Origin: an uncultured Poribacteria bacterium | GTDB taxonomy: Bacteria > Poribacteria > WGA-4E > WGA-3G | Direction of reading: 5' to 3' | DNA length: 64,000 nt | Assembly: GCA_951813565.1 (NCBI GenBank) | Contig: OX638351.1 | Location: 3,410,492 to 3,474,491, forward strand | In this document: positions 14,313 through 56,726 of the stretch, in pieces | Layout of the letters: each line of letters begins with the position of its first letter | How positions within the stretch are numbered: position 1 is the stretch's first letter | Translations under genes and position numbers: made by a program | Notes under the pieces: model-generated | Seen by the model: only the letters and a program-made list of their open reading frames with translations | Told to the model about the DNA's origin: nothing | Databases searched by the model: none

Positions 14313-14330
14313 TGGTTTGGTTATTTATAC

Positions 14331-14480
14331 CCAAGTTGCCACCTATTTCGCAAATGCTCTTGTAGGAGGGGTTTCTAACCCCGATTTAGAACAAAAAACA
14401 TAAGAATCAGCGAAAAAGCCTTGTTTTTTTAGTAAAAAGCAGTGTTTGCTAACTTGAAATCTTGTCCGAGCAACTTAGGT
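14331..14480. repeat. MITE-like repeat, family C
   Basis: Ends CCAAGTTGCC...GCAACTTAGG. Core CTTGTAGGAGGGGTTTCTAACCCCGATTTAGAACAAAA also occurs at 43445..43550, and reverse-complemented at 24351..24400. Related TIR to the 32462..32812 element. Confidence 0.7.
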
Positions 14481-16362: not shown

Positions 16363-16519
16363 CGTGAGTTTGATAAATAGTTAGGATTTCTACATTTCCT
16401 CTTAAAGTCCTCTGATAAGGGGGATTTAGGGGTTAAAAACACCAAAATAACGATTTTTTCAGCAAATATGCCCGTTCTCTGTTCAATTTTTGCCTGTCCA
16501 GTTAATTATCAAACTCACG
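16363..16519. repeat. MITE-like repeat, family B (short copy)
   Basis: ACGTGAGTTTGATAAATAG ... TTATCAAACTCACGT flanking a 130-bp core. Confidence 0.65.
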
Positions 16520-16577
16520 TTATCACGTAGTAAATACGTTTTCTCTTTACTCCAAATTGAGGGTGATGTTATACATT

Positions 16578-27547: not shown

Positions 27548-28913
27548 TAGCACTCCCCGTCAAACCCCCTGCCTTTAGGTAGGGGATGTCCACGGCGAAA
27601 GTTTTGATTTAAAATATACTTTTCAATCTAATCACAATGTGGTATAATATATCATACTATAGTGTAACTCTTGAAGTGATAAAAGACTATATTGAAGGTC
27701 AAAGTGGTCAATGAGAAAATCTCACAAGTTCAAACTTCAACACCAATCTAACACAATCAAACTTGGTAATATGCTTGATGATATGTGGGAAATCCATCTA
27801 CATATCATGCGTTTGGCACGTAGGTATTATCGCATGTTCGGCAAAAATTTGTCTGCGTATCGTCTGAAGGCACACGTCACAAAACTTAAAAAGACAACTA
27901 AACCGCATTGGGCAGCCTTGCCGAGCCAAGTTGTGCAAGACATTGTGCTGCATGGTAAATCTCAAGACGCTTTCTTTGAGAATATCGAAGACCGAAAAGC
28001 GGGCAAAACAACGCGTAAAGTGGATAGACCGAAAATCAAACCGCGCCACAAATACAACGCCATGACCTTCACACAAGCAGGCTACAAACTTGAAGGGAAC
28101 CGTATCAAAATCAACTGTATAGATACATGGTTTTCCTTTCACAAACACCGTGAAATCAAAGGTGTCATCAAGACGATAACGATCAAACGTGACAGGTGCG
28201 GTGACTATTGGATATGCTTTTCGTGTGAGAATGTTGACGATTCCGAACCCAAACCCAAGAGGGGTAAGAGCGCAGGATTTGATTATGGAAACAAAACATT
28301 CCTCACAAGCGACGAAGGGGACACAATAGAATCCCCGCAGTTTTTCAAACAATCACTCAACACGTTGCGATCTCTCAACAAAGCACTCAGTCGTAAAGTC
28401 AAAGGTTCTAACAACTATTATCGTGCGTGCCGTGCTTTGGCAAGGCAACACAGAAAGGTTGCCCGACAAAGAGAAGATTGGCAATGGAAACTTGCCTCAA
28501 AACTTTGTGTAGAGTTTGACACACTCATTTTTGAAACGCTGAACCTTGACGGTATGAAACGATTATGGGGACGTAAAGTTTCTGACCATTCTTTCTACCA
28601 GTTTCTTCAGATATTGGAACAGAAGTGTGCCAAACACGGCAAAAAACTTGTGCAAATCTCTCAATGGATAGCAACAACAAAACCTTGTAGTGATTGTGGA
28701 TACCCTAACAAAGAACTCTCTCTTTCTGATAGGCAGTGGACATGCCCCAAATGTGGCTCACACCACGACAGAGACATCAATGCTGCTATCAATATCAAAC
28801 AGGCAGGCTTGGCTGCCTAAAGTGGAGCGACAATAAGACGGTGGACGCTAAGCGAAAACCGCAGTCGCAAGGAAGCACAAGCCCCTACCTTTAGGTAGTG
28901 GGTACCTATGACA
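27548..28913 (+). mobile_element. IS200/IS605-family TnpB-only insertion element (IS1341-like), copy 1
   Basis: Left end hairpin CCCCCTGCCTTTAGGTAGGGG. TnpB ORF in between. Right end GCCCCTACCTTTAGGTAGTGGGTACCTATGACA, the region expected to encode the omega/reRNA. Roughly 96% identical to the inverted copy at 59351..60720. No tnpA. Confidence 0.85.
27711..28820 (+). CDS. tnpB: TnpB (OrfB) RuvC-like RNA-guided nuclease of IS200/IS605 family
   Basis: 369 aa. C-terminal zinc finger CSDCG...C.KCG and RuvC-III ...DRDINAAINI. Typical TnpB N-terminus MRKSHKFKL.... Confidence 0.9.
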   Translation: MRKSHKFKLQHQSNTIKLGNMLDDMWEIHLHIMRLARRYYRMFGKNLSAYRLKAHVTKLKKTTKPHWAALPSQVVQDIVLHGKSQDAFFENIEDRKAGKTTRKVDRPKIKPRHKYNAMTFTQAGYKLEGNRIKINCIDTWFSFHKHREIKGVIKTITIKRDRCGDYWICFSCENVDDSEPKPKRGKSAGFDYGNKTFLTSDEGDTIESPQFFKQSLNTLRSLNKALSRKVKGSNNYYRACRALARQHRKVARQREDWQWKLASKLCVEFDTLIFETLNLDGMKRLWGRKVSDHSFYQFLQILEQKCAKHGKKLVQISQWIATTKPCSDCGYPNKELSLSDRQWTCPKCGSHHDRDINAAINIKQAGLAA

Positions 28914-41845: not shown

Positions 41846-42573
41846 AGTCCCTCGATAAGTTTCAAGCGTACCCAGAATATGAGAAGTATTCCCAACTCAT
41901 CAATCAATTGGATCCAAACGCTCCGCCACAGGTCGTAATTGTACATCGGACAACTAACCCTATTCGTGCATCAGGTAAAAAACTCGGCATATTTTCCGGT
42001 TCTTTTAATCCGCTTACTGTAGCACACATCAAGATGGTTGAAGAAGCACAGGAGCGTTTCCAACTGGATGAATTGCTGCTACTTCTCGCTAAGGCAAATG
42101 TTGATAAAGATGTATTCGGGTGGTCGTTAGCTGGGAGGATTTTGACACTCAAACGTTATGCGGAAAATGGTACTGATGTTTCAGTCGGTATATCCAGCCA
42201 TGGTCGATATATTGACAAAGTAGAAGCTTTGAGAGCGGTTTATCCTGTCGATACGGAGTTTCACTTCATTGTTGGCTACGATACACTGGTCCGGATTTTT
42301 GATCCGAAATACTATACGGATATTCAGACAGAATTACAGCATCTTTTTTCACAGTGCCATTTCATTGCTGCAAACCGTGATCACGTGGACATAGAAACGC
42401 TAAAAGAATTCCTTGCGCAGCCAGCACTTCAATCGTATAGATCATCTATTGCATACCTGATACTTCCAGAATGCTATGCAGAGGTTTCCTCCACAGAAGT
42501 GCGTCAGCGAATAGCACAAGGTGATACTATTTCCCATTTAGTCCCACCTGTTATTGCTGAATTTTTGGAATAA
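41842..42573 (+). CDS. cytidylyltransferase-like protein, nicotinate/nicotinamide-nucleotide adenylyltransferase (NadD)-like
   Basis: KKLGIFSGSFNPLTVAHIKM resembles the (H/T)xGH nucleotidyltransferase motif of the NadD/NMNAT family. Start overlaps the mazG stop (ATGA). Confidence 0.55.
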   Translation: MKSLDKFQAYPEYEKYSQLINQLDPNAPPQVVIVHRTTNPIRASGKKLGIFSGSFNPLTVAHIKMVEEAQERFQLDELLLLLAKANVDKDVFGWSLAGRILTLKRYAENGTDVSVGISSHGRYIDKVEALRAVYPVDTEFHFIVGYDTLVRIFDPKYYTDIQTELQHLFSQCHFIAANRDHVDIETLKEFLAQPALQSYRSSIAYLILPECYAEVSSTEVRQRIAQGDTISHLVPPVIAEFLE

Positions 42574-43163
42574 CCATTCCCATTATACCATCTATAGCAA
42601 ATAACTGGTTTTCCTAATTTTTTACAGGCGTAAATGCGTGCATCTAAATGTTCACAAAATAAACAAGAATGAAAAAGACGAATTTCTGGTATAGGTTGAA
42701 AGTGAGCACATCTGTTCGCAGTTTCAGCCATCTCACTTAGATGCGTTCGGAAAACGATATTATTTAATTCGGATTTAGCGGCACGGTCTATTGCTCGTTT
42801 CTTTTCTCCGAGTTGTTCCCAGATTTTGTTAATCACTTCTGTTAAAATCGCGCGATATGTTCGTTCACCGGCAGGCTCAGGGGAGTAAAGCGTAACCTCG
42901 TTTTTGACACAATAATTTGCAAGCCTTTTGAGTAGACTGATATCACCTTTTCGGTATTCTTCTCGCAATTCAGCTTTGAACCTTTGTTGAAACTTGTCCC
43001 ACCCAATAAAGCGCGACTCCCATTTTTTTAACAAAGGCACAGAAGGTGTGAGTTCAGGAATTCCCCGGATACCTTCTATTTTCTGGTGGCAGATAACGAA
43101 CTTATCATGCGTATTACTTTCTGTTTGGTTTTGGAGTGCGTCTAAATACAGCACGTTCTTCAT
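42504..43163 (-). CDS. hypothetical protein (DUF488-like?)
   Basis: Protein-like ORF converging on the NadD-like gene. Family assignment weak. Confidence 0.35.
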   Translation of the reverse strand: MKNVLYLDALQNQTESNTHDKFVICHQKIEGIRGIPELTPSVPLLKKWESRFIGWDKFQQRFKAELREEYRKGDISLLKRLANYCVKNEVTLYSPEPAGERTYRAILTEVINKIWEQLGEKKRAIDRAAKSELNNIVFRTHLSEMAETANRCAHFQPIPEIRLFHSCLFCEHLDARIYACKKLGKPVICYRWYNGNGYSKNSAITGGTKWEIVSPCAIR

Positions 43164-43543
43164 CCTCTTCAGAAACACTATTCACAATATTAATTTTAAC
43201 GTTAAAACAAAAATAGGGTTTATTTCATTTTAACATTTAAATAAATATTGCGCAACAATATTTATAATTTGGCGCAAAGATAGGAAAAGGTGAACCCAAG
43301 AAGTGTTATAGCGGATTCTACAATTAACTGGACATCTGAGCTGTCCGAGGGAACTCCGATTCCCCACTACCAGTGGTTTCGTCGCAATTCGGAGATCGCT
43401 CCTACAGAATATATGTGAACTTATTTACATAATTTACTATAATAACCCAAGTTGCTACCTATTTCGTAAATTCTCTTGTAGGAGGGGTTTCTAACCCCGA
43501 TTTAGAACAAAAGACATCCAGAATCAACGAAAACCCTTGTTTT

Positions 43544-44476
43544 TTACTGTAAATTATTGGAATCTGAGTCTACAGATTTTACGAAGTGTCGATTATTATG
43601 CTGTATAGCCATATTAATAGTTATTCTCCACACCCATGTATGGAAAGGACATACAGATTGAAAAGAGTTTAACCCATTGACCACCTGTTCCAGCGTAAGA
43701 ATATCCAGTGCTTTTATCTCTTCGTCATAACGCCCGAAGAATTTCTCAAGAGCATTACGGATCCAAGGTTTTACCGTATCTTTTATCAACTCAGTTGCAT
43801 CACAATCACCGTTCACTGCGGCGGCTATTATTTTTTTATCTGTCTTCTTATCGTTTTGATTTTGGGATTGAACAAATTCTGACGACATAATTCCTCCTTT
43901 TTTATATTCTACACCAAACTCCTTTCGTAGGAGTGATCTTATTTCTCTAAGTCTTGTCTTGACCGTGCCTATCGGTAAATCAAGTTCTCTGGCAATCTCT
44001 TTCATGCTCCACGATTCTAAATAATACAATACTGCAACGGAACGCACCCGTTGTGGAAGATGATGAACTGCTTCTCTTGCCTCAGCACGGAGCTCATATT
44101 CCCAGAAGCGTGGTGCCGCCTCTTGGTCAATTTGCTCAAACAACTCCGCATCGGTGTACGGGATTTCACGTCTTGAGCGTTTAGGGGAAGCGTAGTACCT
44201 GTTGCAAGCGTTATAAGTAATTTTCTGCAGCCACGGTCCAAAACTTTCCACTTTCTTTAGCCCGCTAATGTTGTCCCATACTGCTATCCAGCTATCCGTG
44301 AGAATTTCTTCTGCATCAAGACGTTGCCGTGAATTTGCCATAATCACACGCCAGATTCGTGGTGTATAACGGGACATGAGTTCAGAAAACGCTGCTTCAT
44401 TCTGGTTTTGTACTAATCGTATGAGGTCTTCATCTTTCAGGCTTTTGATAAATTCCAAATCGTAGTACATAAACAA
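43544..44476 (-). CDS. ECF-type RNA polymerase sigma factor with C-terminal extension resembling a second, partial sigma2 domain
   Basis: Sigma region 2 (ILTDSWIAVWDNI...FGPWLQKITYNACNRY) and region 4 (LPQRVRSVAVLYYLESWSMKEIARELDLPIGTVKTRLREIR). C-terminal about 110 aa contain another region-2-like segment FHTWVWRITINMAIQHNNR. Confidence 0.7.
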   Translation of the reverse strand: MFMYYDLEFIKSLKDEDLIRLVQNQNEAAFSELMSRYTPRIWRVIMANSRQRLDAEEILTDSWIAVWDNISGLKKVESFGPWLQKITYNACNRYYASPKRSRREIPYTDAELFEQIDQEAAPRFWEYELRAEAREAVHHLPQRVRSVAVLYYLESWSMKEIARELDLPIGTVKTRLREIRSLLRKEFGVEYKKGGIMSSEFVQSQNQNDKKTDKKIIAAAVNGDCDATELIKDTVKPWIRNALEKFFGRYDEEIKALDILTLEQVVNGLNSFQSVCPFHTWVWRITINMAIQHNNRHFVKSVDSDSNNLQ

Positions 44477-44699
44477 ATCCCTGATTAGTGTTTAATATAT
44501 AGAGGAAGGTTTTTAAGAAAAAGGTTTAAAAAGATGAAATAATTCTATTTTTATGTGAGTTCAACAAAAGGATTTAAGGATTACAGCAGTGAATCGCCTT
44601 AAATTACTTTAGCAACTTTGGCAGTTGAGCAGTCAGTACAATACGCCAAAGTGCAAAAGCAAGTAATTCTTTGAGAGTTTACCACGAGGTAACAGGAAT

Positions 44700-47246
44700 T
44701 TAGGGATTTACATTCCAGATGAGGACAGTACCATCGTCACTTCTACTGCCGAGGGATTTCCCATCTGGACTGAACGCGATACTTCTAACCCAAGCTGTAT
44801 GACCGGTCAGTGTTTTCTTGTGCTTACCGGTATGTGGGTCCCATAAGTTGATGTTACTCTCAAAACCACCGCTTGCAAGTGTTTTGCCATCTGAACTAAA
44901 CGCTAAATCAAACACACGATGCGTCGGTTTGGTGATCTTCATCTTGGTTTGCGCAGTATCAATATCCCACAAGAGGATGATTTCGCCACCCCCGATTGCG
45001 AGGGTCTTACCATCTGGACTGAACGCGAGTCCGCACCAAGCACTATCTATCCGCCAATCTACAATATCATTTCGCAACGCATTATCCAAATCAAGTATAT
45101 TCTTTATCTCACCAGTATCTGTATCCCATACGGGAATAGTATTATCTTCACTACTTGTGGTAGCGACAAATCTACTATCCGGACTAAATGCTATAGCAAA
45201 AATATCTTTTTGATGACTGGATAGGACAAACTTCTCTTCACCTGTGAACATATCGCATAATCTGAGCAGATTGTCATCTAATGCAATTGCGAGTGTATTT
45301 CCGACGGGACTGAGTTTCAAACTATGGTTATGCCATTCATATTTCGTCGGTAACATTTTGCGCTCACCTGTGTTTGCATCCCATAAGTGCATACAATACT
45401 CACCCGATTCACCACCATCTCCCCATGCAAGTATTTTTCCATCAGGGATACACTTAAGATTTTGTATTTCACCGTTTAACATCGGATCCCTAAACTCATT
45501 GTCCGTTTTGATGAGTTCTCCTGTGTGTGCATCCCATACACGGATAGTACCATAGCCATAAGCAACTGTAACAGTCTGTCCATTAGAAGTGAAAGCAAAA
45601 GATTCCGTAGATCCGTTATGTCCATTGATAGCATAGTCTTTCGGGTTACCTGTATGTGCATCCCAGAAGCGGATGAGACCATCGCCTCTTCCACTCGCAA
45701 GTGTTTTTCCATCCGGACTAAATGCTAAACTGTAAAAGTCTGATTTGTGTTCTGTAAGTGTTAGTTTACCTTCACCTGTATGTGCGTCCCAAAGACGAAT
45801 TTTATTTTCTCCGTGTGAAGAACTCGCAAGGGTATTACCGTCAGGATTAAACGCTAAGCGTTTAACAGCCCCTGAATGTCCAGAGAGCTTAATCTTCAAT
45901 TCGCCTGTATTTAAGTCGTTAATGTAAATACTATTGTCTTCCTCTGTTAAAGCATTGCTGACAGCAAATGTATTCCCAACAAGATTGCATGCAATTCTAT
46001 GTTCATAATTAGTTGGCTCTGAAATTGTTTGCTTGTGTTTTCCTGTGATCACATTCCAGAGTGAGATTTCTGCGTCCATACTGCCACAATAAATAGTCTC
46101 TCCATCCAGACCGAATGCCAAGTCTTTGATTATTCCAGAATAATCTTTAGTGAGTGTATTCTTAAGTTCACCAGTGACTGCATCACAAATATGGATAGTA
46201 TTTCGATATCCGCACGCAAGGGTTTTTCCATCTGGACTGAATGCCAGACCTGGTGCCCTAATTGTAAAAGAACTTAAGGTCTTATCCGTTGGCTCAATAA
46301 CTTTTTTATAGGAACTTGTTCTTCTATCCCATAATAGAATTGTACCATCCATACTTCCACTGGCTATGGTGCATCCATCCGGACTGAATGCAACGCTGGA
46401 AACTTCACTCTGATGCTCAGTTAGCAGAGAGATTTCTTTATGGGTTTTCACATCGTAGAGCCAAATACCGATACTACTTGCAACTGCCAGAATTGTACCA
46501 TCGGGAGAATACTGTAGCTCCTGTATCGTACCTTTTCCGAGACGTGCTTTAGCATCTTTAGGCAGGTTCCATTGCATAGAATCTTGTGTTAAGTTGTTTT
46601 CCATTGTTTTGATTCCTTTTGGTAAACCAAGGTCTTTGTTCCTATCAGAGATAGTACTACTTCTAATTTGATATAACAAATCAGGTATTGTTTCTATGTC
46701 AACAATAATTCGTAGACGATTTCGAGCACGTTGAAGTCTACTTTTGACAGTGTTCGGAGACACACTCAAAAACTTTCCAATCGCTTCACAACTCATTTCT
46801 CCGAGGTAGTGGAGGATTATCACCGTGCGTTCGCTCTCCGATAGCATTTCCAGAAGATAATCTACTATTTCACGACGAAACTCAGCAGATGCTTCTTCAC
46901 GCTGTTCTGCAATATAATTGGCAAAAGCGGTTTTTTCGAGTGCCTCTTCACTAATGGTTTCCAGTGATTGCATCGCCAGTTTCTTCTTTCGAAACCATGC
47001 TGTGCAACGTCGGTCAGCGATAACATAGAGCCATCCTATAAACTGACTTGGATTTTCCAGCGAAGCAAGTTTTTTGTGCGCTTGAACGAAAGTGTCTTGT
47101 GTAATTTCTTCAGCGATGTGGAAATCACCGATTTTCCGCCATGCAAAAGCATGGATACGTTTTTGGTGTTTTCTGAACAAATCGCTGAAAGCATCTTCGT
47201 CACCAGACAGTATATTTTGAATTAGTTCAATGTCGTCTCTTTCCAT
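44700..47246 (-). CDS. ECF sigma factor domain fused to a WD40 beta-propeller (no TM segment)
   Basis: N-terminal 190 aa is an ECF sigma: region 2 ITQDTFVQAHKKL...FIGWLYVIADRRC and region 4 LSESERTVIILHYLGEMSCEAIGKFLSVSPNTVKSRLQRAR. More than 12 WD40 repeats follow, starting with the LPKDAKARLGKG motif. Confidence 0.85.
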   Translation of the reverse strand: MERDDIELIQNILSGDEDAFSDLFRKHQKRIHAFAWRKIGDFHIAEEITQDTFVQAHKKLASLENPSQFIGWLYVIADRRCTAWFRKKKLAMQSLETISEEALEKTAFANYIAEQREEASAEFRREIVDYLLEMLSESERTVIILHYLGEMSCEAIGKFLSVSPNTVKSRLQRARNRLRIIVDIETIPDLLYQIRSSTISDRNKDLGLPKGIKTMENNLTQDSMQWNLPKDAKARLGKGTIQELQYSPDGTILAVASSIGIWLYDVKTHKEISLLTEHQSEVSSVAFSPDGCTIASGSMDGTILLWDRRTSSYKKVIEPTDKTLSSFTIRAPGLAFSPDGKTLACGYRNTIHICDAVTGELKNTLTKDYSGIIKDLAFGLDGETIYCGSMDAEISLWNVITGKHKQTISEPTNYEHRIACNLVGNTFAVSNALTEEDNSIYINDLNTGELKIKLSGHSGAVKRLAFNPDGNTLASSSHGENKIRLWDAHTGEGKLTLTEHKSDFYSLAFSPDGKTLASGRGDGLIRFWDAHTGNPKDYAINGHNGSTESFAFTSNGQTVTVAYGYGTIRVWDAHTGELIKTDNEFRDPMLNGEIQNLKCIPDGKILAWGDGGESGEYCMHLWDANTGERKMLPTKYEWHNHSLKLSPVGNTLAIALDDNLLRLCDMFTGEEKFVLSSHQKDIFAIAFSPDSRFVATTSSEDNTIPVWDTDTGEIKNILDLDNALRNDIVDWRIDSAWCGLAFSPDGKTLAIGGGEIILLWDIDTAQTKMKITKPTHRVFDLAFSSDGKTLASGGFESNINLWDPHTGKHKKTLTGHTAWVRSIAFSPDGKSLGSRSDDGTVLIWNVNP

Positions 47247-47285
47247 CAGAAACCTCCATAATCAATTTATGCTTACAATAATAGG

Positions 47286-47315
47286 TGACGCGATTTTACT
47301 GTGGATGGGTTGCAA
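47286..47315 (-). promoter_or_regulatory. conserved upstream motif, candidate ECF-type promoter (TTGCAACC-N15-CGCGTCA in gene orientation)
   Basis: The same motif with identical spacing is found upstream of the paralogs ending at 50220 (motif 50261..50290) and 51410 (motif 51450..51479). Flanking sequence ATTTTTGCAACC...GTAAAATCGCGTCA.CT.TTATTGTAAGCAT is conserved in all three. Confidence 0.45.
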
Positions 47316-47508
47316 AAATGCAATAATTCAAAATATTGAATTCTTACACAAAATCATAAGAAAAGTTTTTTAGTAAAATCTATAATTACTTTTATACTTT
47401 GGTAGGTGCGGTTTCCCAACCGCACTTACCAGTGATGCGACATATTTTAGATTTTACTATAAGTTCTATGGATTGAAACAAACAGTGTTAACTGTGAGGT
47501 AAGTGATG

Positions 47509-50220
47509 TTAGGGATATATTTCCCAGATAAGCACAGAACCGTTATCACAACCGCTAACGAGGGTTTTTCCATCTGGACTAAAAGCGATACTATCGACCC
47601 GACCTATATGACCCGTCAGTGTTTTCTTGTGTTCGTAGGTGTGAGCATCCCATAATTGAATCGTGCCGTCACCACAGCCACTTGCGAGGATTTTTCCATC
47701 CGGACTGAACGCTAAGCACATCAAAAATGTATGCCCGTTAATTGTAATTTTGGTTTTCCACGTGTCTATATCCCATAGATGGATTATCCCGTCATTGCCT
47801 CCACTTGCGAGAGTTTTTCCATCAGGACTGAACGCTAAACCTTCCACCCAATCATTATGTTCGGTAAGTACCATTTTATTTCTACCAGTTGCAACATCCC
47901 AGAGACGAATAGTTTCATCATTACTTCCGCTTGCGAGGATTTTTCCATCCGGACTGAAACCGATACTATTGATCAACTTTTTATGTCCAATAAGTGTCTT
48001 TTTATGTTCGCCAGTGTGTGCATCCCAGAGGTGGATAGTATCGCCATCTTCACTCGCAAGTATATTTCCGTCCGAACTGAGTGTTATATGCTTAACAAAA
48101 CCGGTATGTCCAGTAAACATCAATTTGTGTTCGCCAGTGTGTGCATCCCAGAGGTGGATGTCATCATCAGTCCCACAAAAAAGAGTTTTTCCATTAGGAC
48201 TGAACACTATACTGTAAGCCGATTCTATCTGCCCATTTTTAGGCTCGTTAAATGTTCTTACGGGTTGCCTTGTATCCGCATCCCATAGACGAATAATTCC
48301 ACTGGCGTCTCCACTTGCGATATAGTCCCCATTCGGATTGAACGCAACACTGCGGACCTCCTGCGAATGTCCAGTGAATATGTTTTTCGCGTCGCCGGTG
48401 TGGGTATCCCAAAAGCGGATAGTGCCATCGCCACCGCCACTCGCAATTGTTTTTCCATCCGGACTGAACACTAAGCCCCCGCGCCCGGCACTTCGCGGGT
48501 GTTCGGTGCGTATTCTCCTGTGTGTGCCAGTGTGTACATCCCATAGACAGATTGTTTCATCTTCATAAGACGTAGTAGCAAGTATTTTTCCATCCGGACT
48601 AAACGCTAAGTGGATAACGTGATCCTTATGCTCGGAGAGGATCATCTTGAGTTCGCCTGTGTTTAAGTCGTAGAGGTAGACAGTGCCATTTACACTACCA
48701 ACAGCGACTGTTATTCCATTTGGACTGAACGCTGCACCTACAGCAGCGCAATCAGGGTGCATAGCGAAAGTTTTCTTGTGTTCACCTGTGTCTGAATTCC
48801 ACAGACTGATTTTGTTGTCCACAACCACAATGGTATCGTTGTCTGGCGTGAATGAAAAATTATGACCCGTAACATGCATGAGTGTATACTTCGCCTCTCC
48901 GGTGATGGCATCCCATAATCGGATAGTGCCTTCCCGATTACTACTTATAAGTATTTTGCCATCCGGACTGAATGCTATGCATGTGATATATTCTCCATTA
49001 TGCCCAATGAGCGTTTTTTGCTCACCTGTGATTCTATCATGCAGGGTAATAGTGCCATCGAGATTTCCACTCGCTAAGATGCGTCCATCTGGGCTGAAGG
49101 CAAGATAGTAGACGTCGCTCGTATCCGCATCCGCTGTGATTAGACTTGCTTCTTGATGTACTGTTACATCGTAAAGCCAAATACCGATGCCGCTCGCGAC
49201 AGCCAGAAACTTACCGTCAGGAGAATATTTTATATCGGCTATATACCCTTTACTAAGACGCGCTTTGGCATCTTCAGGCAGGTTCCATTGCATAGCATCT
49301 TGTGTTAGGTTGTTTTTCACTGTTTTTGTTCCTTTTGTTAGACCGTTGTTACTGTTTTTGCTGCGGTTAGTACCACCAACCCGGTTTTGCAATTCAGGTT
49401 TTGATTGGAGATTAAGGACAATAGGCGCGTCAACAATTTCAATTGTGGGTTCTGATTTCGCATTAAGGCTATATGGCTGCTGAAAATTAGTAATGATTTG
49501 ATTGCTTGCACCCATCAACAGAATGACTAAAATAGTAGATGAAACTAATGCAACCCACGGTAGCGGCTTGCCGCCTTGAGGAGATATATGTTTCACCTTA
49601 TCAATCTGCTGCATGATGTTTTCAGTTAGATTTGGAGATAATGGAACACTGCCGAGAGTCTCCTGAATTATGGACTCTTCATTCTGTAAACGTTCTCGAG
49701 CGCGTTTAAGTCGGCTTTTAACAGTGTTCGGAGATACGCCTAAAAACTTGCTAATCGCTTCGCAGCTCATTTCTCCAAGGTAGTGAAGGACCATCACTGT
49801 GCGTTCACTTTCCGGTAGTTTTTCCAGCAGCTTTTGCACGATTTGACGACGGTGTTCAAGGGCTGCGTCCTCACGCTGTTCACAGATATAGTCTGAATAT
49901 GCAGTTTTTTCGAGTGTTTCTTCAGCGGTGGCTTCAAGCGATTGTGTCCACAGTTTCTTTTTTCGGAACCATGCTTTGCAACGTCGATCAGCGATTACAT
50001 AAAGCCAACCTGCAAACTGACTCGGATTTTTCAACGAGGCAAGTTTTTTGTGTGCTTGGAGGAAAGTGTCTTGTGTAATTTCTTCAGCGATATGGAAATC
50101 ACCGATTTTCCGCCACGCAAGCGCGTGAACGCTTTTTTGGTATTTTTTAACCAAAATGCTGAAAGCAACTTCGTCACCTGACAAAACACTATGGATTAGT
50201 TTAACGTCATCTCTTTCCAT
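47509..50220 (-). CDS. ECF sigma factor domain - single TM helix - extracytoplasmic WD40 beta-propeller fusion
   Basis: ECF regions 2 and 4 as in 44700..47246. Then TM LPWVALVSSTILVILLMGA. Then the LPEDAKARLSKG motif and more than 12 WD40 repeats. Confidence 0.85.
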   Translation of the reverse strand: MERDDVKLIHSVLSGDEVAFSILVKKYQKSVHALAWRKIGDFHIAEEITQDTFLQAHKKLASLKNPSQFAGWLYVIADRRCKAWFRKKKLWTQSLEATAEETLEKTAYSDYICEQREDAALEHRRQIVQKLLEKLPESERTVMVLHYLGEMSCEAISKFLGVSPNTVKSRLKRARERLQNEESIIQETLGSVPLSPNLTENIMQQIDKVKHISPQGGKPLPWVALVSSTILVILLMGASNQIITNFQQPYSLNAKSEPTIEIVDAPIVLNLQSKPELQNRVGGTNRSKNSNNGLTKGTKTVKNNLTQDAMQWNLPEDAKARLSKGYIADIKYSPDGKFLAVASGIGIWLYDVTVHQEASLITADADTSDVYYLAFSPDGRILASGNLDGTITLHDRITGEQKTLIGHNGEYITCIAFSPDGKILISSNREGTIRLWDAITGEAKYTLMHVTGHNFSFTPDNDTIVVVDNKISLWNSDTGEHKKTFAMHPDCAAVGAAFSPNGITVAVGSVNGTVYLYDLNTGELKMILSEHKDHVIHLAFSPDGKILATTSYEDETICLWDVHTGTHRRIRTEHPRSAGRGGLVFSPDGKTIASGGGDGTIRFWDTHTGDAKNIFTGHSQEVRSVAFNPNGDYIASGDASGIIRLWDADTRQPVRTFNEPKNGQIESAYSIVFSPNGKTLFCGTDDDIHLWDAHTGEHKLMFTGHTGFVKHITLSSDGNILASEDGDTIHLWDAHTGEHKKTLIGHKKLINSIGFSPDGKILASGSNDETIRLWDVATGRNKMVLTEHNDWVEGLAFSPDGKTLASGGNDGIIHLWDIDTWKTKITINGHTFLMCLAFSPDGKILASGCGDGTIQLWDAHTYEHKKTLTGHIGRVDSIAFSPDGKTLVSGCDNGSVLIWEIYP

Positions 50221-50393
50221 CAGAGAACTCCCATAATCAATTTAGACTTGCAATAATAGGTGACGCGACTTTACAATGGATGGGTTGCAAAAATGTCATA
50301 ATTCAAAAAATACTGAATTCTTACACTAAATCATAAGTAAAGTTATAAGTTCTATGGATTGAAAAAATAACGTTTACTGTGGAGTAAGTATTG

Positions 50394-51410
50394 TTAGGGA
50401 TTTATCTCCCAAACAAGCACAGAACTATCAAGACTACCACTCACGAGTATTCTTCCATCGGGGCTAAAAGCGATACTTCTGACTATATCTGTATGACCCG
50501 ATAATGTTTTCTTTTCCTTTCCGGTATGTGCATCCCAGAGATAGATAATCTTGTTCCTGTCTCCACTTGCAAGGGTTTTACCATCTGGACTGAACGCTAA
50601 CGCATAACTATGCATCCAATTCGTTCTTTTGAGCATCATCTGGTTCTTGCCAGTATCAACATCCCAAAAGCGGATGGTAGTGTCGTCACTCCCACTTGTT
50701 AGGGTTTTACCATCTGGACTGAACGCTAATGAGCTAACCCAATCTGTATGTCCTATAAGTATCTTGTTGTTACCAGTGTTGATATCCCAAAGGCGGACGG
50801 TACCCTTGTAACTTGCACTCGCAAGCGTTTTGCCATCTGGACCGAACGCTAAACAGCTCAAGTGATTTGTATGTCCTCTAAGAGTTTTCTTGCGTTCATC
50901 TGTGTGTACATCCCATAGGGATATAGTCTTCTCGTCATCAACGCCACTGGCTAATGTATTTCCATCTGGACTGAATGCTCTGAGTACTGGGTTATAGGGA
51001 TCATTCATATAAAATATTTTCTTGTGTTCACCTGTCTGTACATCCCATAGGCGAATGCCAGCGTCAGTCCCACAAGCAAGGATTTTATCATCGGGCGAGA
51101 ATTGTATACTGTGGACCATATCGTTAAACTTTTTAAACGTTTTGATGAGTTGCCCAGTGTCTGCATTCCACAAGCGAACAATTCCACCGCTACACCCACT
51201 TGCAATAATGTCCCCATTCCGACTGAACGCTACACTCAAGACAGATTCCGAATGTCCAGTCAATGTATGTTTTACGGTACCTGTGTAGTCATTTTGGGAA
51301 CGGATAGTACCATCGCCACTTCCACTCGCCAGGGTTATTCCGTCAGGACTGAATGCCACCTCGTGAGTGGACAATATTTTGTGATTCAATTCAGTATCAC
51401 TCTTCTTCAT
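50394..51410 (-). CDS. WD40 repeat protein, apparent 5'-truncated paralog of the ECF-WD40 genes (sigma domain missing)
   Basis: 338 aa, WD40 repeats only. Retains the conserved upstream motif of the ECF-WD40 paralogs. Conserved C-terminal tail ...SVLVWEINP. Confidence 0.65.
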   Translation of the reverse strand: MKKSDTELNHKILSTHEVAFSPDGITLASGSGDGTIRSQNDYTGTVKHTLTGHSESVLSVAFSRNGDIIASGCSGGIVRLWNADTGQLIKTFKKFNDMVHSIQFSPDDKILACGTDAGIRLWDVQTGEHKKIFYMNDPYNPVLRAFSPDGNTLASGVDDEKTISLWDVHTDERKKTLRGHTNHLSCLAFGPDGKTLASASYKGTVRLWDINTGNNKILIGHTDWVSSLAFSPDGKTLTSGSDDTTIRFWDVDTGKNQMMLKRTNWMHSYALAFSPDGKTLASGDRNKIIYLWDAHTGKEKKTLSGHTDIVRSIAFSPDGRILVSGSLDSSVLVWEINP

Positions 51411-51837
51411 AAGAGACCTCCATCGTCAATTCATGCTTACAATAACAGATGACGCGATTTTACACGCAACAGGTTGCAAAAATGTCATAATTCGGAAAGA
51501 ATAGGATTCTTACATTAATACTACAGTCTATCTCATAAATCGTTAAATACGTTTCCTTACACAGGTTCTACATTCATCGTAGGGGCGGGTCCCTGTGCCC
51601 GCCCATTGTTTCCACTTATGAGAGAGATGGCGAGGCACCAAATCAACGGTCCGAATGCCTTATGGCATTCCCCGGGACCTCGCCCTACAAATGATTTATG
51701 AGATACGCTCTATTAGGATTTACGCACAAATTTGGAGCACACGGTAAATAAACGGACATCGCTAAAAAGCGTACAATAAATTGTGTTACTACAATAGCCG
51801 CTAAGACTGTATAAGTCTATAAAGTTTGTTCAATTGT

Positions 51838-53733
51838 TTAGCGATCAGAAACCAATTTTGTTAGATCCCATAAAAGGATAGTACCATCAGTACTACCACT
51901 TGCAACTGTTTCTCCATCAGGTGAATACACAACAGAATTGATCATAGTAGTGTGGCCCGTAAACGTGTTGATGTGGTCGCCAGTGCTCAAGTCCCAGAAG
52001 TATATCGCATCACCACTACTACTGGTAAGCACATTACCATCTGGAGAAAAATCAACAGAAATACTATTCCGCGTATGACCTCTGAAGGTATTGAGGAGTT
52101 CATGTGTATTGAAGTCCCATAAACAGACCTTTCCATCCCTGCTGGCACTTGCAAACGTATTACCATCCGGGGAAAAAACAACGGTATGTACAGCCCTCGT
52201 ATGCTCCACAAGTGTGTTAATGAGATTTCCAGTTTCAACATCCCACAACCGGATTGTATTGTCATCACTTGCACTCACAATTGTGTTACTATCTGGTGAA
52301 AACGTTACATAATGCACATCATCTGTATGCCCTACAATTGTATCTAACCGTTCCCCTATGACATTTCGCTCACCGGATCGTATTTCCCACAAACCGATAG
52401 TATTGTCCTGACTTCCACTTGCAAGCATGCTACCGTCAGGTGAAAAAGCAACACTTCTGACAAGATTAGTATGCCCTTTGAATGAACCGAGAAATCGACC
52501 AGTTTCAACATCCCACAATCGAGCTAAGTTAAAATCGGCACTTGCGAGAATTTTACCATCCGCTGAGAAGGTAACGGAGCTGACACTTCCGATAGGTCCA
52601 ACGAGTGTTTTTTGTAGTTCACCTGTCTTCGGATTCCAGAAACTTATTTTGGACATATTTCCTGTTACAAGGGAGCTGCCATCAGGTGCATAAGCGAGAG
52701 AAAAAACTTGAAAGGTAAAATCATCTATTGTTTTCTTAACTTTGTAAGTTTCTACATCCCAAAAATTAATCGTCCCTTCCTTGCCAACACTTATGAGTGT
52801 ATTGCCATCTGGAGAATAGGTCAAAGAAGTGATCGGTTCTTCAGTATGGATAGTTTTCAACAAAAGTCCTGTGGAGACATCATTTATCAAGATAGCGTTG
52901 TTTTCAATCCCAGTTGCGAGGGTTTTTCCGTCTGGTGAAAACACAACTGCCCAGATTTCTCCTATACTTTCTTCTGCTTCACAGGTTATAAGGAGTTTAC
53001 CGGTGCGTCCTTCCCATAAACAGATCTTTCCCCAACTACCTGTTGCGAAAATGCTGCCGTTGGGTAAACTTGCTACTGAATGTATATGCGCTATATCATC
53101 TTGATCACTGGTTATAGTGTTGATGCGTTCTCTCGTTCTCGGCTCCCAAAAACATAAGGTGTTCCCAACCCGATACGAGCCGCTTGCTATCACTGTTCCA
53201 TCTGACGAAAACGATACCGAGTGAACGTTATTTGAATGTCCTTGAAGAGATGCTACCCATTCTCCTGTGTTGACATCCCATAGTCCAACCGTATTATCAT
53301 CGCTTGCGGTAGCAAGTATCTTACCATCCCGACTGAATGATACCTCATTAATATCGTCCCGGTGTCCAATAAAACTTAATATGTGCTCACCTGTGTTTGC
53401 ATCCCACAACCAAGCAGTATTATCATCACATGCAGTGGCAAATGTTGTCCCATCCGGACTAAAAGCCAGAGACTTAATTGGACGTGTATGTCCTGTGAGT
53501 AAATCCAATAATTCATCTGTCCGCAAATCGTATATCCAGACACCGATTGTCGTAGTAATAGCAAGACGATTTCCATCTGGAAAATATTTTACTTTATATG
53601 CTTTACCTTTTCCAATCCGTGCTTTGGCTGCCTCAGGTAAATCCCATAATTCTTTTCCTTGACTATAGCTATTTGGTAAACATAGAATAAAGATTAACGG
53701 TAAAGTTGTTAGTAACAATTTTAGCATTTTCAT
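51838..53733 (-). CDS. secreted WD40 beta-propeller repeat protein
   Basis: Signal peptide MKMLKLLLTTLPLIFILCLPNSYSQG. LPEAAKARIGKG motif followed by about 14 WD40 repeats. Confidence 0.85.
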   Translation of the reverse strand: MKMLKLLLTTLPLIFILCLPNSYSQGKELWDLPEAAKARIGKGKAYKVKYFPDGNRLAITTTIGVWIYDLRTDELLDLLTGHTRPIKSLAFSPDGTTFATACDDNTAWLWDANTGEHILSFIGHRDDINEVSFSRDGKILATASDDNTVGLWDVNTGEWVASLQGHSNNVHSVSFSSDGTVIASGSYRVGNTLCFWEPRTRERINTITSDQDDIAHIHSVASLPNGSIFATGSWGKICLWEGRTGKLLITCEAEESIGEIWAVVFSPDGKTLATGIENNAILINDVSTGLLLKTIHTEEPITSLTYSPDGNTLISVGKEGTINFWDVETYKVKKTIDDFTFQVFSLAYAPDGSSLVTGNMSKISFWNPKTGELQKTLVGPIGSVSSVTFSADGKILASADFNLARLWDVETGRFLGSFKGHTNLVRSVAFSPDGSMLASGSQDNTIGLWEIRSGERNVIGERLDTIVGHTDDVHYVTFSPDSNTIVSASDDNTIRLWDVETGNLINTLVEHTRAVHTVVFSPDGNTFASASRDGKVCLWDFNTHELLNTFRGHTRNSISVDFSPDGNVLTSSSGDAIYFWDLSTGDHINTFTGHTTMINSVVYSPDGETVASGSTDGTILLWDLTKLVSDR

Positions 53734-53941
53734 TACATCTCTCCTTTGCTTTTATAGTAAATTCGAAAATATGTGAATACTTTACGATAAATGTGGTTTT
53801 ACAATGTTCAATTTTAGGTCTGGTAGGAGCGGTTTCCTAACCGTTTCCACCGGGGAGTGTCCACATTTTTTTAGATTTCACTATAATTAATTTGAATTTA
53901 TAAGATGGAATCCATCTCCTCTAATGTCTTTAGAGATTGGT

Positions 53942-54640
53942 TTATTTTGACGGAGGTAAGACATTTACCCAATGTCCGTCCATTCTGTCATCTTCAATAA
54001 ATCCGACTTTTGACCACCAAGTATTTGCACCTGTTCTGGCGTGTCCGCGGTCAAAGTTAATCCCAATGTCAATCCGTTGAGTTGTCTCAGGATAATCCAA
54101 CATGCCCCATGGAATCTCCATCTCTACAATCCATCCATCCTCAACGATGTTGGCAGCCACGTTCCATAGTTCAGGCACATCCTCTATAGGAACATTGAGT
54201 GGCGGATGGCTGACAAACTTTACGCCTAAAGGGTTTGACATAAAAAATCTTCTGTCTCTGAATTGATGTGTATGAAAAAGATCAATTGTAAAGGATATCC
54301 AATCATCGCGCCATGGTCGAACCTGATCCTCGGTCTCAAAGGCAACCAATTGGTCCGGTTTTTCGTCGTACAGATACCACGCGACATAAATGGCTTTATC
54401 AGTATAAATCAACCTGATAACGGATTGATCTTTAGCTGGGGCACCATCAGCATTTCTGTCAGTGAAATCAGTACCACGCGGCGCTTTTTTCCATGCAGCG
54501 TCGTCTAACTTCCCATCAATTATAGGTGGCGAGGCAACCTTTACTCCGCGCAATTCCTTAGGGGGTTTATTAACGACAATTTTACAACCTGTGAGTATTA
54601 ACATCACTGAGATTAATTTTATGAGAAATATGGTTTTCAT
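53942..54640 (-). CDS. lipoprotein with CBM9-like/DOMON-like carbohydrate-binding domain
   Basis: Lipobox ...LILTGC. IDGKLDDAAWKKA...IYVAW motif typical of CBM9-like modules. Confidence 0.6.
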   Translation of the reverse strand: MKTIFLIKLISVMLILTGCKIVVNKPPKELRGVKVASPPIIDGKLDDAAWKKAPRGTDFTDRNADGAPAKDQSVIRLIYTDKAIYVAWYLYDEKPDQLVAFETEDQVRPWRDDWISFTIDLFHTHQFRDRRFFMSNPLGVKFVSHPPLNVPIEDVPELWNVAANIVEDGWIVEMEIPWGMLDYPETTQRIDIGINFDRGHARTGANTWWSKVGFIEDDRMDGHWVNVLPPSK

Positions 54641-54821
54641 ATCTTCATTCTCCTTAGAATTGGAACGAACAGAGTATTAGTTCTTATCTTTGTAGATGTT
54701 AAGACATCATTATCGCATTAATTCAATTTATTTTCGTATTCTTAAATTCGCTGTGTCCACCATATAAATACATCCATGGATGCACTTTTAGCGAGTTTTG
54801 CATGAAAACAGATACCATGCT

Positions 54822-56726
54822 CTATTGATTAAAAACCACGGCTGTTAAATCCCATAACAGCACTGTGCCATCGTAGCTACTGCTTGCAAGCGTCTTACCA
54901 TCAGGAGAAAACATAACGTCCGTGATCCTTGAAATATGCCCAACAAAGGTGTGTATTTTCTCTCCCGTTTTTGCATCCCATAGATAAACTACATCGTAGT
55001 AGCTTCCACTTGCAAAAATACTTCCATCAGGGGAAAATGTGAGAGAAGTGACATCACCATGATGCGGAATTAGGGGTAAACGTAATTTGCCAGTTTCCAC
55101 ATCCCACACATGTATAATGTCATCTTCTCCGCCGCTTATAAGACTTGTGCCATCTGGCGAAAACACAATGTCATAAACATAGTCTGTGTGTCCAGTAAGT
55201 GTTTTTATGTGTTCGCCACTCTTGGAATCCCACAACATAACCGTGTTGTCCGAACTTCCGCTTGCGAGTTTGCTTCCATCCGGAGAAAACACAATGGAAT
55301 TCACAGACCTTGCATGTGCCTCAAGCGTATTTAGCAGATCCCCGATAAGTGGTTGTTCACCAGTGCGAACCTCCCATAACCGGATGTTACCGTCGTGGTA
55401 GCCTGTAGCAAGTGTGTCACCATTTGGAGAATAGGCGATAGATTTCGCATTGGATCTACCATCACTGAAACTTCCCATGAACCTACCAGTTTGCACATCC
55501 CACAAGCGAATTTTACTCACAGATGTGAGATTACGTCCGCTTACGATTGTATTCCCATCCGGAGAGAAAGCCGCAGCATAGAAAAAAGTGCGATAACCAG
55601 TAATGATTTTGAGAAGATCTCCTGTATGTAAATCCCACAATTGAAGTTTTACGCCGCCACCACTGGCAAGCATATTGCTATCTGGAGCATACGCAATTGA
55701 ATGTAACTGATACGTATGTCCAGTGATGGTTTTTGAAAGCGTCCAATCGTTACTGTTCCAGAACCGTACCGTGCCATCGTAACTTCCACTCGCAAGTATT
55801 GTGCCATCTGGTGAATATGTTAATGTTGAAACGAGTCTTTGGTGATATAGTGTTTTAAGTAGGTTGCCAGTGTTGATATCCCAAAGTCGAATTGTCTCAT
55901 CACGGCTTGCCCCCGCGACCGTACGCCCATTGGGTGCAAAAACAACAGAATTGATAAATCCACCGTGCCCAGTGAGGGTTTTCAAGCGTTCTCTTGTAGC
56001 AACATGATAAATATATACCTTATTTGCTGCACATGCAACTATTTTGCCATCTGGGGAAAACGCCAAAGTTTTCACCGTAGTATCTGGGACATAGATAATA
56101 TTCTGTTGTTCACCGGTATTTGCATCCCAAAATCGTAATGTCTGGTCTGCTGCCCCACTTGCAAGCATTTTGCCATCTGGAGAATATGCCACACAATACA
56201 CTCCTCCTCCATGTCCCCAGAGCGTTTTTAGGAGTTCGCCAGTGTGTATCTCCCATAGCTGAATAGAATTGTCGTCACTACCACTCGCGAGAATCTGTGC
56301 TTTAGGACTAAATGCAACTGAACTCACGCCGCCGCCATGTCCTACAAGTGTCGCTTTATTCTGACCAGTGTGTGTATCCCATAACTCGATTCTGCCATCA
56401 TTATTTCCCGTGGCAAATAGTTTGCCATCCGGACTAAAATCTACAGACCTGACGTATGTAGCATGTGCTGGTAGCAGATCAATTTCTTCTCCTGTCCGCA
56501 CATCATATATCCAAGTGCCAGCGGATGTTGCGACAGCGATTTTATTCCCATCTGGAAAATACTTAATGTTATATATTTTCCCTTTCCCGAAACGTGCTAT
56601 AGCATCTGTCGGCAAACCCCAGCGTGTATATTCACCGGAGAAAGCGTTTTGCATAAAAATTGGATACATAACAGAAATTACAAGGAACACCGATCGAAAC
56701 AGATTCATTTTACGCATGAAGGTCAA
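54822..56726 (-). CDS. secreted WD40 beta-propeller repeat protein
   Basis: Signal peptide, then LPTDAIARFGKG, then WD40 repeats. C-terminal tail LLWDLTAVVFNQ. Confidence 0.85.
   Translation of the reverse strand: MTFMRKMNLFRSVFLVISVMYPIFMQNAFSGEYTRWGLPTDAIARFGKGKIYNIKYFPDGNKIAVATSAGTWIYDVRTGEEIDLLPAHATYVRSVDFSPDGKLFATGNNDGRIELWDTHTGQNKATLVGHGGGVSSVAFSPKAQILASGSDDNSIQLWEIHTGELLKTLWGHGGGVYCVAYSPDGKMLASGAADQTLRFWDANTGEQQNIIYVPDTTVKTLAFSPDGKIVACAANKVYIYHVATRERLKTLTGHGGFINSVVFAPNGRTVAGASRDETIRLWDINTGNLLKTLYHQRLVSTLTYSPDGTILASGSYDGTVRFWNSNDWTLSKTITGHTYQLHSIAYAPDSNMLASGGGVKLQLWDLHTGDLLKIITGYRTFFYAAAFSPDGNTIVSGRNLTSVSKIRLWDVQTGRFMGSFSDGRSNAKSIAYSPNGDTLATGYHDGNIRLWEVRTGEQPLIGDLLNTLEAHARSVNSIVFSPDGSKLASGSSDNTVMLWDSKSGEHIKTLTGHTDYVYDIVFSPDGTSLISGGEDDIIHVWDVETGKLRLPLIPHHGDVTSLTFSPDGSIFASGSYYDVVYLWDAKTGEKIHTFVGHISRITDVMFSPDGKTLASSSYDGTVLLWDLTAVVFNQ

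Follow-up and report, generated by a model that had tools for sequence, protein, structure and literature searches.

How is a sigma factor controlled when it shares one polypeptide with a WD40 propeller that appears to lie on the other side of a membrane, and which promoters would such a protein serve? The question is raised by a 64-kb stretch of DNA from an uncultured Candidatus Poribacteria sponge symbiont (hereafter the window, the whole sequence that was examined), where a check of the open reading frames (ORFs) placed five consecutive genes on the minus strand at ~43.5-53.7 kb, in the order D-C-B-A-S, and bore out the coordinates that an earlier sequence-only reading had given for S, A, B and C. 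Gene B (47509-50220, minus strand) encodes 903 amino acids (aa), in which an extracytoplasmic function (ECF) sigma domain is followed by a short linker, one transmembrane (TM) helix, a juxtamembrane motif, a variable linker and ~14 WD40 blades. We regard it as rather probable, if well short of assured, that B is a single-chain signalling protein in which a cytoplasmic group 4 ECF sigma factor is tethered to the membrane, would be released by proteolysis and would activate its own gene, with the extracytoplasmic WD40 region acting as the sensor. The evidence set out below directly supports the architecture, the indicators of topology, membership in a family, the conservation of a promoter motif and purifying selection.

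Sigma domain, membrane helix and propeller of gene B

The sigma domain of B (sigma2 plus sigma4; aa 1-181, 49678-50220, minus strand) scored 97.4 bits over aa 19-181 against the sigma70-ECF model NCBIfam TIGR02937, for which the cut-off is 42.9 bits, and the N-termini of A and S reached 90.3 and 92.6 bits, so that all three stand above the threshold; PF04542, PF08281 and PF07638 are among the precomputed annotations of B homologs. The core is compact, with sigma2 at aa 1-90 and sigma4 at aa 130-180, a low-confidence connector of ~40 aa between them, and sigma1.1 and sigma3 absent. In an AlphaFold2 model of aa 1-294 calculated with 116 homologs, the predicted local distance difference test score (pLDDT) was 80-94 for the sigma2 and sigma4 helices and below 50 for the linker, the TM helix and the juxtamembrane segment, and the model is therefore uninformative on self-inhibition. 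The closest solved chain is Bacillus subtilis SigW (5wuq, E=1.7e-23). Against the SigW models (PRK09641 / TIGR02948) B scored 104.8 bits, its top NCBIfam match (cut-off 209), and 95.9 bits (cut-off 243.1), which is far below the equivalog cut-off, and B is thus not a SigW ortholog.

A Kyte-Doolittle scan found a single hydrophobic 19-mer block, at ~aa 217-244, in B only, and no TM segment in A, C or S. The helix within this block, WVALVSSTILVILLMGASNQII (aa 222-243, 49492-49557, minus strand), is flanked by K and H residues on its N-terminal side and by none on its C-terminal side, an arrangement that places the sigma domain inside and the propeller outside. The predicted topology of B is accordingly N-in with a single TM helix and a C-terminal part of ~660 aa that would be extracytoplasmic. 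Every other WD40 protein of the same type that was checked in the window carries a signal peptide directly before the cap 'LPxxAKARxGKG', and this cap also opens the propellers of A and B. The hydropathy scan, the alignment of A with B and the one-sided basic residues are in line with the sequence-only reading, which had described B as topologically similar to an anti-sigma factor and A as lacking a TM helix.

The WD40 region of B (aa 311-903, 47512-49290, minus strand) begins with the N-cap 'WNLPEDAKARLSKG' and contains 14 repeat ends, a number that fits two seven-bladed propellers; the corresponding counts are at least 13 in A, 7-8 in C and ~14 in D. The Pfam WD40 model PF00400 scored B at 370 bits, A at 248 and C at 242, with A-D all within 242-370 bits. 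Together with the TIGR02937 scores, the values for A and B (248-370 bits) confirm that both are single-chain fusions of an ECF sigma factor to WD40 repeats, as had been proposed from the letters. Between helix and propeller lies the extracytoplasmic juxtamembrane motif FQQPYSLNAKSEPTIEIVDAP (aa 246-266, 49423-49485, minus strand), where F246, Q247, P249, A254, E257 and E261 are conserved at 90% or more across the family alignment and Y250 is invariant, making this motif a candidate processing or docking site. Pfam and NCBIfam searches with the linker-TM-juxtamembrane segment returned no matches at E<=1.

A Poribacteria family and its promoter motif

Database comparisons indicate that B belongs to a large, discrete and hitherto undescribed family, so far encountered in Candidatus Poribacteria alone. 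A protein search with aa 1-352 returned 2604 matches, the best of them with 50-87% identity along the entire query; among these best matches, the annotated entries are sigma-70 family proteins of Candidatus Poribacteria, and many of the database homologs are truncated. In a genome scan that covered one genome per GTDB species we counted at least 588 family loci, and the best 80 of these all come from Candidatus Poribacteria, several of them from the same genome and many on complete long-read chromosomes. The expectation that the architecture would be rare and mostly reported from Planctomycetes-like genomes is thereby overturned: it is abundant in Poribacteria, to which the host genome itself belongs. 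With the segment of B from sigma through juxtamembrane as query, phmmer recovered 294 representatives at E<=1e-30 from 1.84 billion cluster representatives (50% identity), most of them aligned across the full query, as against 19,198 matches at E<=1e-10 that are generic ECFs, and this difference marks the family as discrete.

Alignments define a conserved core that consists of the sigma domain, a linker (consensus EEPMIREAL..FQISPNLTENIMREI..KP..SGGKP.PW), the TM helix and a nearly invariant juxtamembrane motif, FQxPYxxxAxSE, within the longer outer-segment consensus RFQxPYSxDAxSExTVEIVDAPIV. The helix is present at ~aa 220 in 116/116 aligned homologs and in 80/80 best loci. Past the core, the 80 best loci show a variable linker and then interchangeable C-terminal domains: the outer domain is of WD40 type in ~30, and the others include many propellers of BNR, Sortilin-Vps10 or DUF6242 type, a Peptidase_M16_C-like domain, a Big_5 immunoglobulin-like domain and some short forms. 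Two cysteines recur in the sigma domain, C81 in all 116 aligned homologs and C153 in 63 of them (54%). One member of 337 aa (P0057) contains an internal tandem duplication of ~80 aa over the sigma2-sigma4 linker and sigma4, which results in two sigma4 domains before the TM helix. Two others from the same sigma clade (P0247 and P0255), with no obvious TM helix, are fused to extended helical-repeat regions with a thioredoxin/TlpA-like domain at the end, and they widen the range of modules attached to these sigma factors.

Upstream of the fusion genes lies a short, sharply defined motif. The pattern TTGCAACC-N15-CGCGTCA has exactly three matches in the 64 kb, all on the minus strand and ~68 nt 5' of the start codons of A (44700-47246, minus strand; 848 aa, an ECF sigma joined directly to WD40 repeats without a TM helix), B and C (50394-51410, minus strand; 338 aa, WD40 only, ~8 blades). 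Shuffled sequences yielded an expectation of 0.08 matches, and 0/100 shuffles held three, in good agreement with the proposal that all three WD40 paralogs share a conserved upstream block with ECF -35/-10 geometry. In a scan of the window with a position weight matrix (PWM) for the family, the sites scored 35-41 bits and the next best only 7.5 bits; individually, the site of A (47286-47315, minus strand) scored 40.9 bits with its TGCAAC 68 nt 5' of the ATG, that of B (50261-50290, minus strand) 38.9 bits with TGCAAC 69 nt 5' of the ATG, and that of C (51450-51479, minus strand) 34.6 bits. A GGAGG ribosome-binding site lies between motif and ATG in each of the three genes. Read as an ECF promoter, the motif is TGCAAC-N18-CGTC (equivalently TGCAAC-N17-GCGTC), in which an AAC-type -35 element is paired with a CGT-type -10 element and which these sigma factors may recognise.

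Conservation of this kind could simply reflect recent duplication, and the ~105 bp 5' of A and B are indeed alike throughout, so that the A/B pair alone cannot separate a motif from a duplicated segment. The promoter of C has -35 and -10 blocks identical to those of A and B, and its spacer differs at 6/15 positions from A and at 5/15 from B. We scanned the 80 best loci with the relaxed pattern TG[CT][AG][ACT]C-N17-GCGTC and found 33 sites in the 250 nt 5' of family genes (1.71 per kb) versus 11 across both strands of the other 1.28 Mb (0.0086 per kb), an enrichment of ~200-fold; moreover, 8 of these 11 also precede family genes, seven of them tandem paralogs and one farther 5' of the locus's own gene. 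At a PWM threshold of >=15 bits, 52/76 upstream regions were positive, 19 of which had not been used to build the matrix, versus 0/151 control windows (control maximum -2.3 bits). Sites cluster between -53 and -130 relative to the start codon, with ~65-100 nt as the general distance for the family, and follow the consensus AATTATGCAMCC-N14-15-AAnTCGCGTCAC, in which the length of the spacer is fixed and its sequence varies. Motif-bearing relatives, 57-85% identical to B from sigma through TM, occur in dozens of other Poribacteria genomes, and a TM-less relative in an unrelated neighbourhood (locus L081) has the motif at -67. A motif that is family-wide with a variable spacer is not explained by recent duplication, and the possibility that duplication alone had preserved the block is hence rejected. 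The combination of fixed spacer length and variable spacer sequence points to a promoter signature and not to a structured RNA; Rfam, searched over 42000-55000 at E<=0.1, likewise gave no matches. These comparisons argue that the motif is a hallmark of the family and not merely a by-product of duplication.

Whether the motif is read by the sigma factors encoded beside it is a separate matter. Where a group-specific promoter is conserved beside the sigma gene of that group, ECF classification takes this as the standard indication of autoregulation (PMC7826278). The variants of the motif (TGCAAC...CGCGTC, TGCACC...TACGTC and TGCACC...GTATC) track sigma subclades, a hint of self-recognition that is confounded by shared ancestry, and the mutual information between promoter variants and sigma residues, for example between position 83 and the -10 class, is likewise inseparable from shared ancestry. 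In the A/B subclade, conservation also extends past the motif into the 5' untranslated region (UTR). Neither the PWM scan of the window, with its three sites, nor a metagenome scan defined a regulon beyond the family genes: the metagenome pattern TGCAACC-N11-AA-N2-CGCGTCAC gave 91 matches, only four of them before family genes and the others from unrelated environments, at a number that by rough estimate is about chance level. The only clear family-type site before a non-family gene, at positions 2368-2395 of locus L009, precedes an ORF that begins at 2501 and encodes an FtsX/MacB-like ATP-binding cassette (ABC) permease, a possible regulon member. A scan of the window for sigma-70 promoters and terminators gave counts like those of shuffled sequence and was uninformative.

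Paralogs, deletion variants and neighbouring genes

The sigma domain of A is 76% identical to that of B over aa 1-179. A lacks the counterpart of B aa ~180-265, which comprises the linker after sigma4, the TM helix and ~20 residues at the start of the extracytoplasmic part, and realigns with B thereafter through the WD40 repeats. On this alignment A is best described as an in-frame deletion derivative of a TM-containing ancestor, retained under the same promoter as a soluble sigma-WD40 protein and predicted to be cytoplasmic. The same deletion boundaries, RARKNLRNQ joined to VVLDIQSKPD, recur in the TM-less relative at L081 (P0023), and two further clusters of TM-less sigma-WD40 proteins were found (P0242 and P0249). 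Gene C has neither a signal peptide nor a TM helix. Its start, MKKSDTELNHKILSTHEVAFS, opens a run of ~20 codons homologous to the sigma N-terminus (family consensus MKNDDVELIHRILSGDEAAFS), after which the sigma 'AFS' is joined in frame to the 'AFSPDG' of a WD40 blade, with the intervening sequence gone. Because C keeps the promoter, the ribosome-binding site and ~20 sigma codons directly followed by a blade, it is an in-frame deletion product, probably a decaying remnant that has lost both sigma domain and TM helix. The earlier proposal that C had lost its sigma domain and kept its promoter region is in this way upheld and extended.

Gene D (51838-53733, minus strand) encodes 631 aa with an N-terminal signal peptide and WD40 propellers, and the PWM scan found no family motif before it. 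It is syntenic with C-B-A in a related Poribacteria genome (L001), where the order D-C-B-A is preserved with nucleotide identities of ~86% for D, C and B and ~75% for A, and where the B ortholog is 84.5% identical in protein sequence. Ratios of nonsynonymous to synonymous substitution rates (dN/dS) between the window and L001 were 0.07 for the sigma domain, 0.40 for the WD40 region and 0.26 for the whole gene in B; 0.11, 0.30 and 0.29, respectively, in A; and 0.17 for D as a whole. The low values for A indicate that its TM-less form is maintained by purifying selection. The C ortholog in L001 is split by a frameshift. A metagenome contig (L091, LXNJ01003795.1) is 98-99% identical to window positions 43438-53771, and at its positions 2586-3602 an in-register chimera of 338 aa replaces C and B (window 47509-51410), joining the C promoter and the first ~75 aa of C to the last ~263 aa of B, with the B promoter, sigma domain and TM helix absent. 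This chimera arose either by unequal recombination between WD40 repeats or by collapse of a short-read assembly. The repeats make the array prone to recombination, which explains how A and C arose.

The last gene of the array, S (43544-44476, minus strand), encodes a separate ECF sigma factor with a tail of ~115 aa (310 aa in all). Its sigma domain contains Sigma70_r2 and Sigma70_r4_2 above the Pfam cut-offs, is 28% identical to that of B and represents a different ECF lineage; no family motif was found upstream of S in the PWM scan of the window. An ortholog in another Poribacteria contig (L012, 1083-3791) is 60% identical over aa 1-216 and is a TM-less sigma-WD40 fusion of 902 aa, from which it follows that fusion to WD40 arose in at least two Poribacteria ECF lineages. 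Judging by this ortholog, S is a truncated form that lost its WD40 part. The description of S as a stand-alone ECF sigma factor therefore stands (92.6 bits against TIGR02937), whereas the additional partial sigma2 segment that the same reading had placed in its tail has been dropped: no significant sigma2 signal was detected there, the best Pfam match at E<=10 being HTH_16 (E=0.003, below cut-off), and a profile comparison of the tail with the sigma family gave a probability of 0.7%. S also contains a strong internal ribosome-binding site, AAAGGAGGA, at 43887-43899, 4 nt before an in-frame ATG (M196), from which the ~115-aa tail may additionally be translated as a small protein in its own right. 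In contig L091, which is nearly identical, the ORF of 310 aa is uninterrupted.

The array lies among other WD40 genes. Beyond D the window holds at least five more (1840-3555, 54822-56726, 56770-58740, 60787-62856 and 62795-63814), none of which is preceded by the family motif; the three that were checked upstream of D (54822-56726, 56770-58740 and 60787-62856) encode a signal peptide directly followed by the 'LPxxAKARxGKG' cap. Amid these secreted WD40 genes lies a gene for a CBM9-like putative lipoprotein (53942-54640). Two TnpB-like genes (OrfB_IS605 plus a Cas12f1-like TNB domain), at 27711-28820 (plus strand, 369 aa) and 59444-60556 (minus strand, 370 aa), are also present, one of them within the WD40 cluster between two secreted WD40 genes. 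A 2427-aa ORF at 16814-24097 (plus strand) matches LysM, Peptidase_M28 and, at its C-terminus, an FtsX-like permease, and would encode an unusual giant membrane protein.

Dispersed intergenic hairpin repeats that resemble repetitive extragenic palindromic (REP) elements (CGGTTRGGAAACCGCNCCTACC and relatives) occur between genes of the array at 47401-47422 and 53822-53843. Related copies of ~110 nt are found at 43438-43545, 14320-14429 and 16425-16523, and the repeats also occur at 8690-8750 of L081, another Poribacteria contig. One copy belongs to a ~90-bp stretch that lies between the B stop codon and the A promoter and is without counterpart in the shorter spacer 5' of B. Directly 5' of the C promoter is a GC-rich segment of ~130 nt (51560-51700) with strong hairpins, among them GGGCGGGTCCCTGTGCCCGCCC (51583-51604), which is single-copy in the window and has 0 copies in the 81 loci compared.

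Proposed mechanism and relation to known systems

According to the favoured mechanism, the sigma domain of B would be inactive while anchored; an event at the propeller would lead to cleavage near the conserved juxtamembrane segment, and a subsequent intramembrane cleavage would release the sigma domain, which, together with RNA polymerase, would act at the family promoter and raise expression of B itself and of A and C. Release by proteolysis is suggested by analogy with IutY (ECF243) and SCO4117 (ECF52); autoregulation and sensing by the propeller are likewise put forward here as the presumed functions. Several observations weigh against this mechanism. No anti-sigma domain was detected between sigma4 and the TM helix by Pfam, NCBIfam or AlphaFold, and the linker of ~40 aa has no Cys/His motif; inhibition would then rest on tethering alone, for which we found no characterised sigma-factor example. 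Promoters and DNA-contacting helices hardly differ between the paralogs, which makes cross-activation likely and strictly private autoregulation unlikely, and the apparent autoregulation may amount to a shared regulon or be the work of another sigma factor. No site-2 protease gene was found within the 64-kb window. The conserved TM-less members (A, P0242 and P0249) indicate, furthermore, that this sigma also functions, or at any rate is retained, with no membrane anchor, and release can thus not be the only mode of control.

How the tethered protein might work otherwise is illustrated by ToxR and CadC, N-in single-pass proteins with a cytoplasmic winged-helix DNA-targeting domain and a periplasmic sensor, which act without release. 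B could in the same way act while tethered, its propeller modulating the sigma domain through conformation or oligomerisation with no proteolysis; the undetectable anti-sigma domain fits a protein that is not built to be held inactive, and the conserved linker and pre-TM segment (LSPNLTENIM..I, KP.P) could pass a signal. In B, unlike ToxR or CadC, the cytoplasmic module is however a sigma factor, which needs to associate with core RNA polymerase; ECF sigmas have to wrap round that enzyme, yet sigma4 is only ~40 residues away from the membrane. The near-invariant outer juxtamembrane motif is also more easily understood as a processing or docking site, and the sigma-TM hybrid IutY needs proteolytic release, its truncated form being constitutively active (PMC8999054). 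We consider action in the tethered state unlikely on this balance, and assign about the same low probability to the idea that the motif is read by a different ECF sigma factor, either S or one encoded elsewhere, or is a conserved leader or operator. The near-identical motif before dozens of paralogs and the one site before an ABC permease gene do resemble the regulon of a single master regulator, and conservation in the A/B subclade continues into the 5' UTR past the motif. Nevertheless, the block has ECF geometry (an AAC-containing -35 and a CGTC -10) with a spacer of fixed length and variable sequence, its variants track the sigma subclades (though ancestry could cause this), S lacks the motif and comes from a different lineage, and the region has no Rfam match; a promoter beside its own sigma gene is, moreover, the usual sign of autoregulation (PMC7826278).

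For A and the other TM-less members, a tentative alternative is that a cytoplasmic WD40 region serves as the regulatory module and holds sigma2 and sigma4 in an active or inactive conformation until a partner binds, so that A would be an independent regulator and not an amplifier acting after B. Both parts of the TM-less A are under purifying selection, TM-less relatives with sigma and WD40 parts turn up in several 50%-identity clusters and in other genomic contexts, and the invariant C81 and the 54% conserved C153 recall the two cysteines of ECF57 (PMC8999054), a resemblance that is drawn by description only. The propeller of A is nonetheless of the exported type, retains its N-cap and derives from a TM-containing ancestor; A also keeps the family promoter, which couples its expression at least to that of the family, and the interaction model is itself a proposal for ECF57, without experimental support in any member. 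Least probable by a wide distance is that the fusions are artefacts or dead genes, that is, assembly joins, read-through products or pseudogenes in a decaying array. In favour of this view, the array is prone to recombination, C arose by deletion and is frameshifted in L001, L091 has a C/B chimera and truncated homologs exist in the databases, but intact long ORFs of the same architecture occur in 80/80 best loci, many of them on complete long-read chromosomes, dN/dS is 0.07-0.40, and linker, TM helix and juxtamembrane segment are strongly conserved. The loci and the dN/dS values contradict an assembly or read-through origin for A and B, and such an origin is plausible for C only.

Returning to the reading of B as a tethered and proteolytically released sigma factor, its extension to the phylum is more speculative: it is conceivable, although we would not rely on it, that the main transmembrane signalling repertoire of Poribacteria, which are dominant sponge symbionts, is built on one tethered-sigma module with no anti-sigma domain, with a conserved juxtamembrane segment open to cleavage and with swappable propellers (WD40, BNR/sortilin) or other outer domains, many sensors feeding one regulon through a common promoter class. 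If so, the family would constitute a new ECF group with tether-only inhibition, and the WD40 proteins of sponge symbionts, usually seen as effectors of host interaction, would at least in part be sensors wired to transcription. Sponge symbionts are puzzlingly rich in WD40 'eukaryote-like' proteins, and the family links this richness to gene regulation. No paper linking Poribacteria with ECF sigma factors was found in the searchable literature, to which the family-level picture is new; a single-cell genomics study of Poribacteria describes abundant WD40 proteins and leaves sigma factors unmentioned (PMC3909097). With a conserved core, swappable outer sensors, a sharp promoter motif and natural deletion variants (A and C) adjoining B, the locus and its family offer a comparative system for a one-component class, ECF sigma factors with fused regulatory extensions, that is recognised and barely characterised, and whose WD40-bearing members have had no experimental study.

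Among known systems, ECF sigma factors that carry a fused C-terminal extension form a well-recognised class (PMC7826278, PMC8999054). ECF57 (formerly ECF01-Gob) of Planctomycetes has WD40-like C-terminal extensions and 5.3 copies per planctomycetal genome (PMC7826278); its members have one cysteine in sigma2 and one in sigma4 (PMC8999054). Regulation through WD40-partner interaction in the cytoplasm has been proposed for ECF57, and control by the binding of a partner also for ECF42. Compared by description only, the B family resembles ECF57 in combining an ECF sigma with C-terminal WD40 repeats and in having multiple paralogs per genome, and differs in its occurrence in Poribacteria and in its conserved sigma-linker-TM-juxtamembrane core, to which WD40 is only one of several outer domains attached. 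The propeller of B is also predicted to be extracytoplasmic, in contrast to the cytoplasmic protein-protein interaction proposed for ECF57. ECF01-Gob proteins may themselves also contain a TM helix.

The SigW promoter, TGAAAC-N16-CGTA, is similar in geometry and composition to the promoter of the B family, TGCAAC-N16-18-CGTC. The membrane anti-sigma factor of SigW, RsiW, is removed by site-1 (PrsW) and site-2 (RasP) proteolysis; unlike this pair of proteins, in which RsiW provides a zinc-binding anti-sigma domain, B is a single chain. The anti-sigma portion of IutY is of FecR type and operates together with a TonB-dependent receptor. In this protein of Pseudomonas putida (ECF243), an ECF sigma at the N-terminus is followed by a single TM helix and a sensor domain in the periplasm, and cleavage by Prc and then RseP frees the sigma factor (PMC8999054). 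B likewise joins a sigma domain, one TM helix and an outer domain in one chain, and IutY is our working model for it, although B has no detectable anti-sigma domain, bears a WD40 propeller in its stead and has no receptor gene nearby. In Actinobacteria, ECF48, ECF52 (SCO4117) and ECF53 have C-terminal extensions with 1-2 TM helices and an extracytoplasmic domain, for which proteolytic activation is predicted (PMC8999054); these extensions include a zinc-finger (ZAS-type) anti-sigma domain before the TM helix and proline-rich or carbohydrate-binding outer domains, whereas the linker of B contains no Cys/His motif and matches no anti-sigma model. The design is thus already known from ECF57, IutY and ECF52, and the Poribacteria genes are new members of it from a new phylum.

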